Part shown: piece by piece, positions 40,088 through 56,331 of the stretch
Layout of the letters: each line of letters starts with the position of its first letter
How positions within the stretch are numbered: position 1 is the first letter of the stretch
Source: Corythoichthys intestinalis
Taxonomy: Eukaryota
NCBI RefSeq assembly: GCF_030265065.1
Contig: NC_080408.1
Coordinates: 22,727,480 to 22,791,479, forward strand
Reading direction: 5' to 3'
Length of the DNA stretch: 64,000 bases
Translations under genes and position numbers: made by a program
Notes under the pieces: generated by a model
What the model was told of the DNA's origin: nothing
Database searches by the model: none
Seen by the model: the letters and a program-made list of their open reading frames with translations, nothing else

Positions 40088-40332
40088 TACAATCATCCTC
40101 AACTTCTATTTTAAGCCAATAGCTAGTGTAGTAGCCAGCTAGAGATGGAGAATCAAAACTAAACGCTTTGTCTTTTCCCTTTTAATAGTGACACTTTCAC
40201 GACTAGAAAAAAATTGAGTCAGTGCTTCTCTTGATAAATATCGGTTGTGATAGTGATGTTCTTTGGAGGCATTTAAGCTAGATATCATTGAAATGACGTC
40301 TGTTGAATAATGGACATTTTGCTGTCTGGCAG

Positions 40333-40452
40333 ATGAAAAAGGGCCCTCCAGTGCCTCCGCCCCCCAAAGTCACCCCTTCCAAGGAGGTGGTGGAGGAGCA
40401 AATCATAGACCTGTTTGGAGGAGAGTTTTTACCAGCGCCGTCGCCATCCCAG
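40333..40452 (+). CDS. amph: amph exon 11 ([40 protein letters not shown])
   Basis: Acceptor tgtctggcAG| and donor cag|GTCTCT. Matches the human proline-rich SH3-ligand segment (TRKGPPVPPLPKVTPTKE...PEISVTTPSQ). Confidence 0.75.
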
Positions 40453-40516
40453 GTCTCTTAGCCTTCCCAGAAAAACGAGTCCAATCACCTCGCTAACAGC
40501 TTCTTGTGTGTCCGCA

Positions 40517-40600
40517 GCCCAATGAGAGGCCAGGAGAATCTCTCCTCGATCTCGATTTTGACGCCTTCCAACCAGATGAAAGTGTGTCGCCAGTACCGCA
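40517..40600 (+). CDS. amph: amph exon 12 (PNERPGESLLDLDFDAFQPDESVSPVPQ; clathrin box LLDLD)
   Basis: Acceptor tgtgtccgcAG| and donor cag|GTTGTT. Contains the conserved LLDLDFD clathrin-binding motif. Confidence 0.75.
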
Positions 40601-40701
40601 GGTTGTTTTTATATTTTATCTTAATGTTGAATATGAATATTTTTAACGTTATCTATCTGACTGAATCGGATTTTGTGTTAAAACATACTCTCTTCTCCAA
40701 G

Positions 40702-40728
40702 ACTGCTGTGCCTTGGGATACGTGGTCG
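40702..40728 (+). CDS. amph: amph exon 13, 27-nt exon (TAVPWDTWS; W-box PWDxW)
   Basis: Acceptor tcttctccaAG| and donor tcg|GTGAGT. Matches the human LPWDLW clathrin terminal-domain W-box. Confidence 0.6.
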
Positions 40729-40808: not shown

Positions 40809-40826
40809 GCTCAGCCAGCCCAGACT
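40809..40826 (+). CDS. amph: candidate amph micro-exon, 18 nt (AQPAQT)
   Basis: Strong signals ctccctcctAG| and |GTAAGT, phase-0 symmetric. No homology evidence is possible at this length. Confidence 0.4.
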
Positions 40827-41149
40827 GTAAGTACACACTCAATTTACTTAACATGACATTTATGCCTAACAAGGACTTGTTTGTGCAATTTGGTGTTAGA
40901 CTGAACACATAATGTGCAAACAGATTCTATGGCAGCAGCACTGTCGTGGAGTGGTATAGTCCAACTTTAAAGGGGAAGACGACACCTTTATTATGCACAT
41001 CTTGTTTAATAAATTAAAAATCGTAGAATTTAAGTTTTCTGATGTGTAATAGTGGAGAAACATGGAAATAAAAGCTAGTATTTCTGACAAGTGGTTGCCT
41101 GGCATGTTGGCAGACATTTTGTCAATGGTGTTACTATTACAGGGTTCCC

Positions 41150-41335
41150 GCAGATCCTTGAAAAGTCTTAAAGGGAACCACAGATATAAAAAGACTTGTA
41201 GTTCTTAAAAGATAAACGTTATTATGAGGTAAAATACTTTGATATTAAAACCCCTCTTGATGTCTTCGTTTTTATACAATTTGTAAAATTACTTTTAACT
41301 TGTAGGTCGCCATGGTTGCCGACGTCGCAGGCCGG
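41150..41335. mobile_element. internal fragment of MITE family M1
   Basis: ..agacttgtagttcttaaaagataaacgtt..attaaaacccctcttgatgtcttcgttt.. aligns to 22400-22520. Confidence 0.5.
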
Positions 41336-41834
41336 TGACATCACTGGGTTACTTTGCCGGTCGTCCAGAGTATGACTCTAGTGACATAAACGTGTCATCT
41401 GTTCAGCCCTTTCAATTTGAACCCGAGAGGAACATTATTGAGCATGAGAGCACTGTCGATATGTCACAAAACAAGCAGCAAAAGCAAAGTGAACAGGACA
41501 GACGGGATGAGACGAGAGTAGGAAAAAACAAACTGGTGTTCGGCCAAAAATGTGCTATCACCGGTGAAATGTGCTACAAGAGGTGAAGTTGACACCCAAA
41601 GTACTACCGTGCGGTTTCAGCTTGTTTTGTTTACTAGAACATACTAAAGATGCCTTAAGAAAATTCTTAAAAGTAGTACCGTATTTTTTGGACTATAAGT
41701 CGCACCAACCAAAAAATGCGCAATGAAAAGGAAAAAAACATATATAAGTCGCACCAGAGTATAAGTCGCATTTTTGGGGGAAATTTATTTGCTAGAATCC
41801 AGCACCAATAATAGACATGTCATCTTGAAAGGCA

Positions 41835-42170
41835 ATTTAAAAATATTGGAGTAGAGAGACAGAAACAATGACATTTTGCGGCTCTCATCGTCGTGTTTTC
41901 CTTGTTGTGAATAATTCCCCCTCAATGGGCTGAATAGTAAAACCGATGAGCCCATTCTCCCGCTGACGTCATCCACCTGTTGGGGACGCTAGAGCCCTAT
42001 AATGGTAGGCGTGGCTAACCGGCAGATTAAAAGACTAATTTCTCGTCATCTGCGCTTTGCTACATTGTTGTATAAAGTCGCATCGTCTCAAAATATGATT
42101 CTAATTCACATAATAATGCTATTTAAGACTTTTTTTCTCATGTCGTATGCTCTTTAAATATGTCACTTCC
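41835..42170 (+). repeat. paralog of the 20..245/1638..1715 repeat without the THAP-element insertion (empty site)
   Basis: Direct alignment to both flanks of THAP element copy A. Confidence 0.6.
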
Positions 42171-44379
42171 TGATTCTCTGCGTTGTTGGCATGACTCCAG
42201 TTCTAGCAACAACTTCATGTCCCGTGGTGTATTTTTTTTTTTTTTTTTTAATTTTGGTTTGTTGTTGAGTAGGTCTTGAATTTCATTTCAAATTAATAAT
42301 TAACAAGTCTTAAAAAGTCTTGAATTGAATTTGCCTTGAGATGTAGGAACCCTGTATTACAGCCAATCAAACACGAGTATCCCAAATTGCCCGCCCTTCC
42401 TCGTAATGTCATTAATACCCATTATCTCATGCACTTGTACTCCAGTCTATCCCGTTTATATGGGTATAACTGACAAAAAAAAATGGCTGGAATAAATTTT
42501 TATTTAACCCTTTATAGAGCACTCCTTTAGTCCATTGACGGCTCTAGATGCCCAATCCATTTTGACGGGCTGAAAGGATTAGTGCATAGACTTCACTATC
42601 AGCTGACACCATCTCATAGGTGGCCGACGTTGAATTGGCTTTCAATGTGATAAACTCAAACACACGTTGCGCTCTAACGCCAGATTTAGGTGGAAACAGG
42701 ACGAAGGTTTCACTGCATACAAGCAGGTCGGAGTGTCTCAAGAGTGATTTGATCGAGGATTCAAGGTAATTATTATATTAAATAGCAACATGCAGGCTCT
42801 TTGAAACGTTGTGAAAACAGTCAAATGAATGGAAAAAAATTGGCATTACTTTAGCTTAACATATTTACATAAAATAGATGATAACCGCCCGTGTTTTTTT
42901 TCTTTTCTTTTAACCAAGACTATAGACTGTTTTGCGTCCATATCTATATAAATTCAGAGATTTACGCATCTATTTACAAGAATTTTAAACTTAAAAAGTT
43001 CTTTGTTTTGTGATTGCCGCCATGTTGGATTTTGTATCCACACACAAAAGCGTAACTTTACATTCAAATAATCAGGTAATATTTGGCCAACTGCCCGTTT
43101 TTTGGCAAGAAACTGGTCATTTAGACATTTCTGCGTCTATACAAATTTATTTATTTATTTTTTTTTAATGCAACATTTCAATCTAAAAACAACGAGGGCC
43201 AGATGGCCGGCAAAACGTGCTGAGGCAATAGTGACATTGGAATTCAACTTAATTAAATAATTAATTAATATTAAGATGATTCTGCATTCTTTCCTCAAGT
43301 ATTAAGTTTCTGATTAAAACATGATTTATTCGCTACTTTATTTATTTATTTTGACAGAAGTTTTCAAATATGTCAAAATTGCACTAAATTAAAAAAAAAA
43401 AGAAAGTTATATGACATGTTAAAAATATTGCTATTGATCCTGAGCACGTTGGTGATTATCTCTGCATTTGGTGATTTTTGTGCATCTAATGTAAAATCTG
43501 AGAATTTTATAGCCATTTTAAGTTTTGTTATACAACAACTAATCGGGATTTTATTAGGGAACGACTTTGAATTTTTTGATGCCGTTGCTCATGGAGACTC
43601 ATATATAGGAGGTGCCTGTTTTGGTTTTAGTTCGCTAACGGCTTTGGTTATGGCTTTGGCCCCGCGCCCCGTTTCTCATCAACTGTGAAGGAATCTGACC
43701 TTTTGGCCAGATTGGCGGAATCGCGCCAGCCGAACCGTCGGAACCGTGCTAGTGCAATTCCAACGACTCGGGCCGGCGGAATCCCAACAACCCGCCCAAA
43801 AAGCCAGACTCAGCACGTTCACTTTAGTCTTAACCCCTTGTACTGACTCCATTTTGAAAGCTGGAAAAATGCGTCGAAACACAAGTTGACAATTTAGCGA
43901 TAAAACGGCAAGGCAAAACAGCAAAGAGACCTAGGCGAGGAAGCAAACTGGATCCAGGGTCATCATATTACAAGTCAACAAAAGGTTCCTGAGAAAAAAT
44001 GACTACGATTAGTTAAACATTCAGACTTTTAAAGGCTCTGCGCGTTGGGCTTCCGTGGTCAGAAGGCGTCCTGTATCTTTCTGTCCTTATCTGCCCATTG
44101 TCCTGTTCTAATCATTCCAAGTCCAACTGTTCATAATATCAAATATATTCTGCTTATTTTTCTTAAACGATGATACAAATGCTATTTATTTTATATTGGG
44201 TGGGTTAGACTAATACAAACAGTCAAACAGTAAATACGAGAAAATATAATATTCCCTTCAACTGATAGTGAAGTCTGTGGGCGAAGTCTATCTAGTTTGG
44301 GCACCCGTCTTTCACATGAAGGTCATTTCTACGAGGTGTTGTATTTCCCTTTAACATTTAATTCCCTGCATCTGTTCAG

Positions 44380-45723
44380 GCTTCAGAAGGCGGGTTTGTC
44401 CCTGACTGGTCAGCAGACTTTGGTTCGGCGGCTACTGACGGGGATGCCACAGCAGGGGAGGTCGCCGCAGGGGAGGCATCTGAGGGGGCAGAGGGCGGGG
44501 ATCACCAAGGCAACGGAGATGCGCTTCCTCCTCCTTCCAAGGACAGTGAGGCAGCCGAGGATGAGGTTAGCAGCCCGGACGGCCCATCTCAAACACCCAT
44601 CGAACTTCTCCGTGGCACCGCCGACGATTTGGAAACAGGGCAGGCAGAGTCGCGGGGAAACTGGCCAGGGGAGGGAGGTCGAAGGAAGTCCACCCCAGGT
44701 CTGATTTTCACCAACGAGTTTGGCGAACAGATTGAGGACGACTCCAAACAGTGCAGGGAGAAGCGCTCCAGGTCTCCCGACGGCTCGGGATCAGAATACG
44801 AAACGGCCGAAGAATGGGGCGACGGGGTTCATGGCGGGGGCTGGGCTAGCGCGGAAGACGAGCTTGAAGATCACATTAACGTAACGCAAGAAACCACTGG
44901 AAGAAGTGATGAGCAAAATACAGCAGATGTCAATTCAAAGAATTCGATAACCTCGGAGGAATATCGAGACGGAGGGGCATTCGAGAGCCAGCCTTTTGCA
45001 GAAAAACAGGAAGAATACTCATTTAACTCTAATCGCTTTGCAGAAACACAAGGAGTCGCACTGGATTGCGGTCATTTTGCTGACGTCCAAGAAGGACGCG
45101 CAAACGATTCAGACAATTTTGCCGAAAAAGAAGAAAGAGTATCGGATTCGAACTGTTTTCCCGACGTACTGGAAGGAGGAGCGTTTGACTCGGTTGCTTT
45201 TGATTCGGATCCGTTTGCGGATCCGCAAGGAAGCGCATTTGAGTCGGACCCTTTTGCCGACATACACGGAGGCACGTTTGATTCCGACCCATTTGCCGAA
45301 ACGCAAGAAGGAAGAGGGTTAACGTCGAATCCTTTCGCCGACATACACGGAGGAGGCGCGTTTGATTCAGATCCGTTTGCAGAGACATCGGGAAGAAGCG
45401 CCTTCGATTCGGATCCTTTTGCCGAAACGCAGTTCGTAGGGTCGTTCGATCGCGAATCTCAGCTCGGAGACCGAGCCGGTTTAGATGTGCAGTGTTCGGT
45501 TGTCCAAGGAGACGGGGTAAGCGGGTGGGATCCTTTTGGCACGTCGTCTTCAGACGATGCCAATGTGTCCTGGAAGCAAGCCGGCGAGAGTGGCACGGAA
45601 CGTCAAGATGTAAATGCACCCAAGGTCCTTAAGGAACCAGGAAGTTCTGACATGTCTGAAGATGAGACTGCAAACCTGAGATTTGGAAAAATGTACCAAG
45701 ATGTAGCTAAAGAAAAGGAAGAG
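44380..45723 (+). CDS. amph: amph large exon 15 (448 codons; acidic A/E/G-rich start, then ~11-12 tandem 14-aa DPF/NPF-containing repeats)
   Basis: Acceptor ctgttcAG| and donor gaagag|GTACAT. One open frame of 1344 nt in phase 0. Composition resembles the variable region of amphiphysin. Internal weak donors (e.g. 44566 GTTAGC) could allow sub-division. Confidence 0.6.
44970..45450 (+). repeat. amph: coding minisatellite inside amph exon 15: about 11-12 x about 42 bp, encoding xxFDSDPFAETQEG-type units
   Basis: Units: GGAFESQPFAEKQEE / YSFNSNRFAETQG / GHFADVQEG / DSDNFAEKEE / NCFPDVLEG / AFDSDPFADPQG / AFESDPFADIHGG / TFDSDPFAETQEG / TSNPFADIHGGG / AFDSDPFAETSGRS / AFDSDPFAETQFVGS. Confidence 0.8.
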
Positions 45724-46690
45724 GTACATGGCCCCGTTTTTAGTGTCCTAGTTTGGCAGCAAGTAGACTTCAGTTGAAATTCTAACAACCCTCCACCCCT
45801 CGAGTCAACCCTAAGATGATCCAACGCCAAACCTTTGTTGTGCTTCCTTCCCGTACCTAACATTTGATAGGATGCTGCATAAACATGACCCAAAAAAATC
45901 TGTACTATTAACCCTTTCATGCACGAACTGTGTTTTTTTTTTTTTTTTTCTTCATTCATACAGGACATGGGGTCTCAAAGTTGTGGCCCAGGGGCCTATT
46001 GCGGCCTACGGGACAATATTTTACGATCCTCAGTTTGATATCCAATGAATACAAAATATATACAGTATAAATAGTTTGAAATAAAATGAACTGAAGAATC
46101 CATTTGGCGGGGGAAAAACAATTATTTCAATAGCTATAAATGATAAAAAATCATGAGCAATAAAAAAATATAAATTCAAAATAGATTTTTTAAATTGAAA
46201 CAATTTTTTTTTATTTGGGGCAAAAAAACATAGACATATTTAGCTCTTAGAATTTTATTGGCTTATTTTAAAGCTCTTGTGACCTCGCATATCTTAACTC
46301 TATAGCTACCGATGACGGCAATAGACGTCCAATCCATTTTAACTTTAGCTAGAAGCAATCAAATGATTGATTTCAACATCAATTTCTCTCTTTTACTTAC
46401 TACCACAACACATATCCTGTGACCTGGGCTGAAAATGAATGAGTTTGGCTAATGGTAACTTTTGAATAAATGTCCACTGTCCCTGAAAGGGTTAATCTTT
46501 GCCTGCCTGTCTACATTCTCCTTCACTTCGTTCCCTTTTCCGATCTTTGTATTATTATCTAGTTCATCTATCTTTTCCTAAAAATGGTCCTTTCCCTGTG
46601 TTCATTGTTTAGTCTATGTCACTTATGCACTATTTTTCCCCCCAAATATTTGATATAGTTCTTGTCTTATTTTAAACATGCATTCTGAAG

Positions 46691-46732
46691 GATGCCACTG
46701 GCCCATCATTCTTTGCTGATTTTGATAAAATG
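46691..46732 (+). CDS. amph: amph exon 16, 42 nt (DATGPSFFADFDKM)
   Basis: Acceptor cattctgaAG| and donor atg|GTGAGT. Phase 0. F/D-rich adaptor-motif-like peptide. Confidence 0.5.
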
Positions 46733-52771: not shown

Positions 52772-52954
52772 GAAACCATGCCCATCCCATCTGTGGTGAT
52801 CGAGCCAGCCTCGAGCAACGAAGGTGATGACGATCGCGACGCGGACATAATCTCACCGTCTGCTATTAGCGACAATGGCGCAGTGTCCGACAAGCAACCA
52901 GTCAAAAACCCGAGTTCGTGTCCAGGGGGACTCCCTGACGACTTCATGTACAAG
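52772..52954 (+). CDS. amph: amph exon 19 (ETMPIPSVVIEPASSNEGDDD...GGLPDDFMYK)
   Basis: Acceptor tatttttgcAG| and donor aag|GTCAGT. Matches human EKVIPSVVIEPASNHEEEGE...ELPPGFLYK. Confidence 0.8.
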
Positions 52955-54704
52955 GTCAGTTTTTCACAAGTTGGTATGAATCAAAGTTACTTCTTGCACC
53001 TTCCGAACAGTATTTAATGCCACCGGAGTTAGTCCGGCTGTTGTCATTTCCCTGCCCCAGCTTAGGAGACGGAGAAAAGAGCGTAAACAAAACAGGAGGA
53101 GTGACAGCTAGCCGACATGCTAACTTGAATCGAGCGGCGTTTCGAAGTCTTTTTCTCGTCTTTCGAAAACAAAAAAATCACACAAAACCACCTCGACTCA
53201 TGCGACACACGGCGGCGGGGTTGATTGTCTCCACCGATCAGCCAGCCTGTGGTGTTCTTGGCAAATTTTTCACCCTTATAATATTTTGCTCCCAAAGCTG
53301 TTGTGGCGGTGAATAAGCCCTCTTTTAAATGTAGTTGGACTCTCAATGTTATCCACAGGTTCTAAATAAACAAGTAACATCGTAAACGTACATGTTCAAC
53401 ACGAATATGGTGTAAATTAATACTTAACGACACTGTGAAGACAGTAAGAGAGCGGCGTGCAGTTGTTGTGTGCAGCTAACATGTCTGTTGTGTCTGAGGA
53501 CAAACTTTTCTACATGTCCGTCCATGAGCAAACGTAAGTAAATATTCCTTAATTTAAAGAAAGTTTGTAATGTTTACTTTGTAACCGCTGTATTCGCGGC
53601 CATTTTTAACACAAAGTTGCAATTTCTGATGGGGTGCAAAACAAAATTTGACAGAACAACAGCAGCGAGCAAGTTCCTGCTCGTCATTCTACTGCTGCCC
53701 CAGCGGGCCGGCAGAGAGGGGAATGAACGTCGAAAATAGCGCATTCTCGTTGGATAAATCGGCCGACGTTGGAGCGGGGGGGCTGCTCGGGGCAAAGCGC
53801 TATGTGGGGCGGGCACGCAAAGAGCTCTAAGGGGGGTGTGCGGCAAGCCGCCGGTCGTCGGCCTTGTGGCCTTCTTGGTGGACAAGGAGTATTGTCACCT
53901 GCAAAATGCAAACCACCTTCTTATTAAAACGTGTACCCTGATCCCAGCATTTGACATAAGAAAAAAACAAAAAGCTTGCTTCCTTGCCCGTCCAATGGTT
54001 CCTCGGTTGTCGGACTTGCTTTGCCCATCGCGGTAAACAAGGATCTTTTGGCAATCCAAAAAGGCGCACACCACTCTCCCTGGTGCAGCAACAAAAGCCT
54101 GCAGCACATTGGTCTGGCGTGATGCTAAAAATAAATGAATTAATCCGCAAAATCTGCTGAATCCGCAGCCCTTCTGCATGCTATGGCTAATGGCTGTATT
54201 GTGAGATGATGAATCGGGTGACGTCACATTCGCATTCTTCCTAAATCCAGGAAGTCACTCATTTTATTGGTGCGGGATTCCAAAAAATTGAATAAATAAA
54301 TCGAATTCTCCCACACACATCCAAGAGGTCCATTTCATTCAGGAGCATAAAATACCACGTGAAATATGAAATAAACATGCTTTTTGCTGTCATAGGCATT
54401 TAAGTATCACACAAGAGTGAAGATGTCCGAAGTATGGAAATATCTGACAGTCGTATGTGCTTTTTTTCCCCCTCCTTAATAACCTGAGGAATCGGATTGG
54501 TAGTCTATATAAGCAGATCGTCAAAATCAGTTGATTCGTGCAAAAATATGTGATCTGGACAACTCTAAGAAAAACGCCATACTGGCTAAGGAACAGCACT
54601 GATACTGTCTGTACTGCTTCATATCTCCTGCCAGGGAATATTAATCAGGTTCTCAGTATTTCTCAGTGTTTTAACTTAAAGTAAAATCATTTTTGTCAAA
54701 GGTG

Positions 54705-54795
54705 GTAGACGTCCAATCAGTTGGGGTTGGCTGTTCATTCGCTGTCACCCTCCCAGTGCAAATGGATTGGACATCTACAAGTGATAAACCCATGT
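54705..54795. mobile_element. palindromic MITE family M2 copy
   Basis: ..ggtagacgtccaatcag...caaatggattggacatctacaagtgataaac.. Confidence 0.5.
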
Positions 54796-54818
54796 AAAAA
54801 GCTTTCATTTAGTTTATA

Positions 54819-55961
<1,143 letters not shown>

Positions 55962-56051
55962 GTAAGTGCCAAATGATTGGACGTCTAGCATAGTCAATGA
56001 CACTGATAGTTATTATGAGCATATAGCTAGTTTCGGTGTGATCTCGCACAG

Positions 56052-56153
56052 GTGGAGACGATGCACGACTTCGAGGCAGCCAACAGCGATGAGCTGGACC
56101 TGAAGCAAGGCGACGTGGTTCTGGTGGTTCCCACCGCCTCGGCGGAGGATCAG
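56052..56153 (+). CDS. amph: amph exon 20, SH3 part 1 (VETMHDFEAANSDELDLKQGDVVLVVPTASAEDQ)
   Basis: Acceptor tctcgcacAG| and donor cag|GTGAGC. Near-identical to the human AMPH SH3 N-terminal half. Confidence 0.9.
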
Positions 56154-56226
56154 GTGAGCATCTCGCGACTCCATCAACCGAGTAAGCTGGATTCAAAACT
56201 TGTCTTCTTTGCGTCCGCCACTACAG

Positions 56227-56331
56227 GAAGCCGGCTGGCTGACGGGATTTAAGCAAAGCGATTGGATGACGCTAGGAAGCAGAGCTCAAAAGGGACTTTT
56301 CCCGGAAAACTTTACTCAACGTTTGGAGTGA
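56227..56331 (+). CDS. amph: amph terminal coding exon, SH3 part 2 + stop (EAGWLTGFKQSDWMTLGSRAQKGLFPENFTQRLE*)
   Basis: Acceptor ccgccactacAG|. Ends at TGA 56329-56331. Matches human DAGWLVGVKESDW...KGLFPENFTRRLD*. Confidence 0.9.
   Translation, partial: EAGWLTGFKQSDWMTLGSRAQKGLFPENFTQRLE

Follow-up and report, generated by a model that had tools for sequence, protein, structure and literature searches.

In canonical amphiphysin 1, the clathrin/AP-2 (CLAP) region carries solitary motifs (FxDxF, DPF/DxF, LLDLD and PWDLW), and the presumed targets are the AP-2 alpha appendage and the clathrin terminal domain. These motifs were reportedly described by Olesen et al. in 2008 (JBC 283:5099; cited in PMC4921775). 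A rat retina variant, 'amphiphysin Ir', is said to have been reported by Terada et al. in 2002 (FEBS Lett 519:185) and Hosoya et al. in 2004 (Eur J Neurosci 19:2179). It contains a large optional AMPH insert, which follows the CLAP/W-box region and precedes the acidic linker that leads to the SH3 domain. Here, these systems are compared with a 1344-nt exon of the pipefish Corythoichthys intestinalis, located at 44380-45723 of a 64,000-nt window (contig NC_080408.1). All positions are those of the window and all features are on the + strand. The exon belongs to the amphiphysin gene and encodes an array of DPF motifs. Computation shows which gene this is, how its exons are arranged, how far the exon is conserved and how the array is distributed across teleosts, along with selection on the motif and predicted disorder. 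The favoured reading, held with moderate confidence, is that this is a long alternative exon of the Ir type and that its teleost DPF array is a disordered, multivalent ligand of the AP-2 appendage.

The DPF domain of Eps15/Eps15R contains 15 DPF motifs, and its distal part binds the AP-2 alpha appendage. DPF and DPW motifs bind the platform of this appendage weakly, with a single DPF at about 120 µM (PMC5694535). In Eps15, AP-2 reads single DPF motifs without a spacing rule and affinity is derived from avidity (PMC4921775). The mu-homology domain (µHD) of FCHo, in contrast, needs DPFs that are 2-3 residues apart (PMC4921775), and the DPF tracts of Eps15 bind µHDs (PMC4731787, PMC4921775). An earlier reading of this locus, made from the sequence only, had called DPF an established AP-2 appendage ligand, and the literature agrees (PMC5694535, PMC4921775). 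The DPW repeats of epsin and the DLL/DLF repeats of AP180 are similar in being tandem acidic-aromatic motifs in disordered tails that act as AP-2 appendage/clathrin ligands, and the proteins are unrelated.

By sequence similarity, the gene is the amphiphysin (AMPH) of a syngnathid close to Nerophis. In a tblastn search with the AMPH protein of Nerophis lumbriciformis (P0026, 649 aa), the whole gene is recovered between 7836 and 56328 as 19 exon segments with 68-100% identity. The exons at 7836-28009 match residues 1-298 (68-100% identity) and form the BAR part. The exons at 52772-56328 match residues 521-649 (97-100% identity) and form the SH3 part. Pfam identifies the BAR domain (E 4e-47) and SH3_9/SH3_1 in P0026. 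Both boxes of the clathrin/AP-2 region are present, LLDLD (ESLLDLDFDAF) and PWxxW (VPWDTWS). With BAR, CLAP and SH3 exons all mapped, the sequence-only assignment to amphiphysin stands.

Within the exon, frame 1 is free of stops for 448 codons, and the other five frames contain 7-25 stops each. The chance of 448 stop-free codons at the local base composition is 6e-10. The acceptor side consists of a polypyrimidine tract and AG (ctgcatctgttcAG/GCTTCA, with ...ctgttcAG/GCTTCA at the border), and the distal donor border is GAAGAG/GTACAT. Across the exon there is a G+C peak of 0.48-0.51, compared with approximately 0.38 in the intronic flanks. The phase is 0, and 40809-40826, 44380-45723 and 46691-46732 join in one unbroken frame. 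The sequence-only reading had described a single 1344-nt phase-0 exon. The open frame and the phase are retained from this description and the borders are AG/GT, but the exon is composite. An internal donor, GATGAG/GTTAGC at 44566, produces a 186-nt form that is used by Nerophis P0026 and by the Syngnathus acus X1 and X2 models, which then continue at 46691. The V63 codon, which supplies the GTN of this donor, is nearly invariant in the alignment of 17 teleost exons. In length the exon is divisible by three, and the frame is preserved in the short as well as the long splice form.

On the basis of these sequences, the locus is a single exon that can end at either of two 5' splice sites, with 44566-45723 as its optional part. 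The short form (44380..44565) contains 62 codons, ASEGGFVPDWSADFG...AAEDE, and ends at the donor GAG/GTTAGC in alignments with P0026 and Syngnathus acus X1. The alternative extension (44566..45723) contains the remaining 1158 nt, or 386 codons, and uses the distal donor GAG/GTACAT. The extension is an open frame with homologues in 50+ teleost proteins, and distal junctions are present in relatives. The long form is considered an extension of a shorter exon because P0026 and Syngnathus X1/X2 stop at the internal donor. In the predicted Syngnathus acus X4 model (...AKEKEE/DATGPSFF) and in Cololabis, the distal junction is KEKEE/DATGPSFF. The Cololabis saira X1-X4 models (about 1190 aa; 1192 aa for the named one) extend from BAR to SH3 and include the long exon. 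The two junctions on which the earlier reading depended, 40826 to 44380 and 45723 to 46691, are therefore present in predicted orthologous isoforms (Cololabis X1-X4, with the distal junction also in Syngnathus X4). The homologue search and the 17-exon alignment likewise agree that the frame is coding and conserved. In Corythoichthys, use of the distal donor is a prediction from sequence, and the predicted long isoform would have approximately 1035 residues, with 386 additional codons between the CLAP region and SH3. Pfam searches with the 448-aa translation, a 196-aa minus-strand open reading frame (ORF) and a +2-frame ORF return no family, and a PDB sequence search with the 448-aa translation returns no match. 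These null results fit a disordered motif region, and a gene on the opposite strand is without support.

The array (44971..45441; aa 198-354) is made up of 11 units with the core aF[DE]SDPFA[ED]t. The period is 13-14 residues, with one unit of 19. In the five upstream units the motif has decayed to QPF, NRF, GHF, DNF and NCF. The six downstream units are AFDSDPFADP, AFESDPFADI, TFDSDPFAET, GLTSNPFADI, AFDSDPFAET and AFDSDPFAET. Five of these carry a DPF (45208..45216, 45247..45255, 45286..45294, 45370..45378 and 45412..45420), where six perfect DPF units had been claimed. The remaining unit carries the single NPF of the earlier reading at 45328..45336; it is a DPF unit with a D to N change (AAT), and the NPF is not kept in other teleosts. 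A sixth DPF follows the array as WDPF at 45526..45537, close to the previously given position of 45520. The tryptophan of this motif, W383, is invariant in teleosts, and the motif occupies the site of the conserved non-teleost DPW. Successive DPF motifs in the window are 13, 13, 28, 14 and 39 residues apart. The total of six DPFs compares with 0.15 expected from composition (approximately 40 times as many), and six or more were obtained in 0 of 100000 shuffles, with a maximum of 3. As in Eps15/epsin-type array proteins, there are several DP[FW] motifs in a disordered region, above chance. When gamma-ear/GAE motifs, FxDxF and WxxF were checked by eye in the repeat unit, none of them fitted F[DE]SDPFAE.

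In the DNA, the repeat is less regular than in the peptide. A minisatellite of 11-12 units of about 14 residues had been proposed; 11 units of 13-14 residues are found, but the 42-bp periodicity is weak. Tandem Repeats Finder (TRF) reports only an 84-bp period (45199-45425; 2.8 copies, 69% matches), and the 30-nt unit cores are 47-80% identical to one another. In the core F[DE]SDPFA[ED] of the five DPF units, there are 35 synonymous and 10 non-synonymous codon differences. Because the cores have diverged, and mainly at synonymous sites, the units are read as old and as kept by selection on the peptide. A homogeneous or hypervariable coding minisatellite is rejected, as the TRF matches and core identities are not those of similar head-to-tail DNA units. 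Judging from these sequences, slippage is not expected to generate much polymorphism in Corythoichthys, and the suggestion that copy number is likely polymorphic is weak for this species, in which the units have diverged at synonymous sites. Between species, copy number does shift. One 12-residue unit separates Syngnathus acus from S. scovelli, and S. acus contains runs of identical AFESDPFAETAG units. Near-perfect recent amplifications are present in S. acus and in P0004.

The DPF array is present in every teleost sampled. A search with the 448-aa translation gives 53 homologues, of which the named ones are nearly all teleost amphiphysins, and the array is found in all 19 teleosts besides the window species. 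In these 19 species the exon contains 3-15 DPF and 0 DPW motifs, compared with 0 DPF and 0-2 DPW in 13 non-teleost vertebrates. The number of DPFs per exon is 7 in Albula, 10 in Conger, 5 in Gymnothorax, 15 in Astyanax, 13 in Cirrhinus, 6 in Esox, 10 in Cololabis and 10-11 in Syngnathus, so that the array spans elopomorphs, otophysans, esociforms and percomorphs. Its period is 7-9 residues in the otophysans and Conger and 14 in the percomorphs. The 153 teleost DPF sites share the flank consensus gGaF(D/E)S-DPF-AEt.G, with A at +3 in 75% and F at -3 in 58%. In the 19 other teleosts, as in DP[FW]-array proteins, the motif is kept in orthologues with differing unit lengths. The counts also agree with the earlier statement that mammalian amphiphysin 1 carries only isolated motifs, as the mammalian orthologues have no array. 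The claim of a lineage-specific innovation holds for the array, which is Teleostei-wide (19/19 others) and found in 0/13 non-teleosts, but not for the exon itself, which extends from shark to rodent. In Astyanax mexicanus (P0058), the array alternates 15 DPF with 11 DLF (...QDLFASEPTQDLFASEGTDDPFAS...). DLF/DLL is the AP180-type clathrin-binding motif, and the Astyanax array would be a mixed AP-2/clathrin ligand if its DLF binds clathrin.

In the non-teleosts, a conserved DPW is located just 5' of IWPENW(E/D)PT. At this site, Amia has GGWVSDPWAADKNPIWPDNWEPT (GGWVSDPW), the sauropsids have ETDPWLANWDPTV (ETDPWLANWDP) and the shark has ESDPWSREKHEIWPENWEPT (ESDPW). The elopomorphs have GWAADPFASESNQMWPDNWAP at the same site, with more DPFs ahead of it. 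Both the alignment and hhalign place the W383-DPF of the window as the counterpart of the non-teleost DPW. The simplest history suggested by these sequences is that a unit around an ancestral DP[WF] was amplified after the split from the Holostei and then underwent lineage-specific turnover.

The alignment of 17 teleost exons (A1) contains 27 invariant columns. Its profile was searched against 1.84 billion representative proteins and gave 109 matches, which were named by cluster look-ups and a second search with the gecko exon. The conserved tail KEPGSSDMSEDETANLRFGKMYQDVAKEKEE (45631..45723) is the signature of the exon in all sampled jawed vertebrates and contains a predicted helix at aa 427-447, as seen in the alignment, the structural model and hhalign. 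In the window the tail reads SDMSEDETANLRFGKMYQDVAKEKEE/GT, and the signature SD(L/M)SEDE.AN.R.G.LYQ....KEE ends exactly at the GT donor. The tail signature is found in about 110 proteins, from shark to rodent. The AMPH models that contain it are from the shark Heptranchias, sturgeon, gar, bowfin, frogs, axolotl, geckos, snakes, crocodilians, turtles, birds and rodents. When the teleost and non-teleost exon profiles are compared, hhalign gives a probability of 98.5% (E 2e-15). Full-length BAR-to-SH3 models that run through the exon are present in Cololabis, Esox, Albula, Gymnothorax, snake and frog.

In the rat model LOC100909679 (P0211), the AMPH CLAP region (...LLDLDFDPF...PWDLWTTSTDLVQP) and the W-box are followed directly by the large exon. 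This model is 68% identical to snake AMPH (E 6e-85), and the tail forms the second segment of the match. The exon order, from the W-box exons to the large exon to the (A)FNGF/SFFADF exon, is the same in the window, rat P0211, snake P0135 and Cololabis P0054. A search with the non-teleost tail profile (A2) gives 11 matches and no named mammal; the rodent link comes from the cluster look-ups instead. The exon is considered ancient because its tail extends from shark to rodent, the rat P0211 model is continuous and the hhalign probability is 98.5%. By sequence, the long exon is the teleost orthologue of an ancient large alternative AMPH exon of jawed vertebrates.

The exon probably also corresponds, by sequence, to the insert of rat amphiphysin Ir ('insert A'). 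Rat P0211 and the window exon share the tail SD(L/M)SEDE.AN.R.G.(L/M)YQ....K(E/D)E. The rodent exon (rat Ir-type) differs in being a cassette without DPF and without DPW. In the fish exon, in contrast, the first 62 codons are common to the short isoform through the internal donor, and the DPF array lies mid-exon. In the annotation of several species, the large AMPH exon stands as a gene of its own, named 'uncharacterized protein LOC...'; examples are rat (LOC100909679, P0211), Hemicordylus (P0163), Podarcis (P0164), Prinia (P0181) and Plectropomus (P0013). Such entries are probably mis-split pieces of AMPH; the rat model is the one that was examined, and the others match the same exon.

The AlphaFold model, made with the 17-sequence alignment, has a mean pLDDT of 49.9, with 314 of 448 residues below 50 and values of 39-51 in the array. 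The insert is thus predicted to be intrinsically disordered except for two short conserved elements, which is the expected setting for short linear motifs. The first element is the hairpin-like TPGLIFTNEFGEQIED at aa 105-123 (pLDDT up to 88). The second is the helix at aa 427-447 in the universal tail, 3' of the acidic SDMSEDE cluster (pLDDT 77-91). A conserved module, RRKSTPGLIFTNEFGEQIED...DGSGSEYETAEEWGD (also read as RRKSTPGLIFTNEFGEQIED...SGSEYETAEEWGD), to which the hairpin-like element belongs, is located at 44680..44823 and is present in Amia and all teleosts. Its invariant columns are P106, G107, F110, T111, E113, G115, D120, S136, S138 and Y140-W146. The module is present in Amia and Albula, was not found in the tetrapod or shark versions of the exon, and has no known motif assignment.

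By analogy, the function of the array would be most like that of the distal Eps15 tail, and its descent, by sequence, would be from the amphiphysin Ir-type exon. Each DPF would act as a weak, independent ligand of the AP-2 alpha appendage platform and possibly of the beta2 appendage. As a BAR dimer, the long isoform would display approximately 12 DPF sites. These could bind several AP-2 complexes and cluster them by avidity, as in the distal Eps15 tail, while the BAR domain would sense curvature, the clathrin boxes would contribute and the SH3 domain would recruit dynamin and synaptojanin. The likeness to Eps15 is that both are oligomeric endocytic accessory proteins with many DPFs in an acidic, Gly/Ser-rich region that is unstructured. 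There is no sequence homology between the two, and amphiphysin joins its array to a BAR domain, clathrin boxes and an SH3 domain; its wide spacing excludes the triple-DPF µHD mode of Eps15. Compared with canonical amphiphysin 1, in which the CLAP motifs are solitary, the window keeps LLDLD and PWDTW and the extension adds six DPFs. A retina-specific amphiphysin I variant is reported at ribbon synapses in the rat (PMC11536687, citing Hosoya et al. 2004; Terada et al. 2002 is listed in PMC6952364). By analogy with this variant, the proposed mechanism may be set at ribbon synapses, and the fish exon may be included in the retina.

The array might instead be a neutral low-complexity expansion in which the DPFs are without ligand and only the conserved ends matter (the TPGLIFTNEFG/YETAEEW module and the SDMSEDE helix tail). 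Such an expansion would account for the fast turnover of unit length and number (periods of 7-9 vs 14; 3-15 DPFs), the near-perfect recent amplifications in Syngnathus acus and P0004, the five degenerate units of the window and the non-teleost exons without an array. It is nevertheless unlikely, as the DPF array is kept in every sampled teleost although unit length and flanks have turned over completely, and the 153 units share a flank consensus (A at +3, F at -3). The window units are old in their DNA, yet the motif is kept (35 synonymous vs 10 non-synonymous differences), and DPF is approximately 40 times as frequent as composition predicts. Binding partners other than AP-2 are improbable. 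The µHDs of FCHo1/2 or SGIP1, in the Eps15 triple-DPF mode, are suggested by the binding of Eps15 DPF tracts (PMC4731787, PMC4921775), but this mode needs 2-3 DPFs spaced 2-3 residues apart (PMC4921775), and the minimum among teleosts is 5. An AP-2 mode is preferred to a µHD mode because the DPFs of the window are 13-39 residues apart, and the FCHo/SGIP1 candidate is rejected on the same distances. EH domains could be bound through the NPF at 45328. This NPF is single and 18 of the 19 other teleosts lack it, which argues that it is not a selected feature, and an EH-domain ligand, for which multiple or conserved NPFs would be expected, is rejected. The EH-domain part of the scaffold proposed from the sequence alone is thereby lost.

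It is quite unlikely that the extension lies outside a BAR-to-SH3 protein here, either as a terminal exon of an SH3-less form that ends in a read-through peptide or downstream of internal starts in a BAR-less form. The read-through codons past the distal donor (45724..45777) encode VHGPVFSVLVWQQVDFS followed by a stop, and an equivalent peptide is kept in other vertebrates. In tetrapods and percomorphs this peptide is short, and it forms the end of several RefSeq models (Gavialis X1, zebra finch X4, Lithobates X1-4 and rat LOC100909679). AATAAA is present at 46080, 46159 and 46465. Gnomon models whose start lies within the exon (Syngnathus X4, Oryzias melastigma X6, gecko X1, axolotl X3 and Amia X7) would fit the BAR-less form. 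Against both forms stand the full-length models of Cololabis, Esox, Albula, Gymnothorax, snake and frog, together with an exon length that is a multiple of three and keeps the frame to SH3. Conservation past a regulated donor is also expected of intronic splicing elements, and AATAAA is common in AT-rich introns. A fortuitous intronic open frame or decayed pseudo-exon is extremely improbable. In its favour, the annotated Nerophis protein skips the extension, and the donors GTTAGC and GTACAT are both suboptimal. This candidate is contradicted by the chance of 6e-10 for the open frame, the 27 invariant teleost columns, the tail kept across jawed vertebrates and the G+C peak, and it is rejected on the conservation data.

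Several points weigh against the reading of the exon as an Ir-type AP-2 ligand. The only annotated protein of the sister species (Nerophis P0026) is the short form. Spliced cDNA was sought among the Logan and ENA hits and none was found; these hits are considered genomic DNA because all of them run through the donor. The D-P of the motif is lost in 5 of the 11 units, which could mean relaxed constraint. Non-teleost orthologues manage without the array, so it is not needed for the ancestral role of the exon. High-avidity AP-2 binding is plausible from the motif itself. The equation with 'insert A' is presumed from its position and the rat P0211 model.

The usual division is that amphiphysin contains solitary AP-2 motifs and Eps15/epsin contain arrays, and a teleost isoform with 3-15 DPFs blurs this division. 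The array is a natural experiment on motif valency in endocytic scaffolds and a clean, testable case of the gain of a motif array inside a conserved alternative exon. A more tentative possibility is that, at the base of the teleosts, a ribbon-synapse amphiphysin turned its single ancestral DPW into an Eps15-like DPF array, which in some lineages was interleaved with AP180-like DLF. A single protein would then combine curvature sensing and dynamin recruitment with a multivalent scaffold that clusters AP-2 and clathrin, and this could adapt clathrin-mediated vesicle retrieval at tonically releasing sensory synapses. Fish retinal bipolar terminals and hair cells serve as standard preparations for ribbon-synapse endocytosis (PMC11536687). 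If the long isoform is expressed at fish ribbon synapses, AP-2 valency there would be unlike that of the mammalian variant, which bears on the transfer of results from fish to mammals. The analysis also ties many 'uncharacterized protein LOC...' entries to one ancient AMPH exon. The long isoforms are already in public databases as predicted proteins. No paper describing a DPF array in fish amphiphysin was found in a limited search, in which 'dpf' (days post fertilization) swamps the results. The finding is unsurprising in kind, as its ingredients (DPF arrays, alternative 5' splice sites and disordered inserts rich in motifs) are well known, and no expectations are overturned.

The read-through peptides differ among vertebrate groups. 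Each ending in a stop, they are VPTPVCS[LI]V in sauropsids, VLTPVCSID or VHTLECSLD in mammals, VSLLSPVCSLV in frogs, VLDFLPSSVW in percomorphs and VHGPVFSVLVWQQVDFS in the window. Their conservation reflects either an SH3-less terminal-exon isoform or an intronic splicing element. Gnomon models with internal starts and without BAR are P0016 (Syngnathus acus X4), P0023 (Oryzias melastigma X6), P0107 (Paroedura X1), P0112 (Ambystoma X3) and P0075 (Amia X7). These models could represent an alternative promoter 5' of the exon or could be truncated. The Syngnathus X4 model begins 3' of the TPGLIFTNEFG module, and the early extension may be interrupted there.

Upstream of the long exon, the CLAP exon at 40515..40601 (100% identity to P0026 by tblastn) encodes the clathrin box and a weakened AP-2 motif, ESLLDLDFDAF (LLDLDFDPF in mammals). 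It is followed at 40699..40728 by a 30-nt W-box exon with the clathrin motif TAVPWDTWS, which is recognised by tblastn with P0026 and by sequence. Between the W-box exon and the long exon, an 18-nt microexon at 40809..40826 encodes AQPAQT. It is present in the Nerophis protein (P0026 residues 375-380) and has good splice sites (ag/GCTCAGCCAGCCCAGACT/gtaagt). As the upstream splice partner of the long exon, it joins in frame. The downstream partner exon, DATGPSFFADFDKM, is located at 46691..46732 by tblastn and also joins in frame. In the window (40330-40452 and 40515-40601), weaker sequences stand in place of the solitary AP-2 motifs that the mammalian CLAP region carries: the FxDxF motif FFEDNF is replaced by DLFGGEF, and LLDLDFDPF by LLDLDFDAF. 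This weakening may be linked to the DPFs that the long exon has gained, and the array, if it binds AP-2, might make up for the solitary FxDxF and DPF motifs that have decayed in the CLAP region of percomorphs. DFDPF is still kept in Albula and Esox, and FDDNF is kept in Albula.

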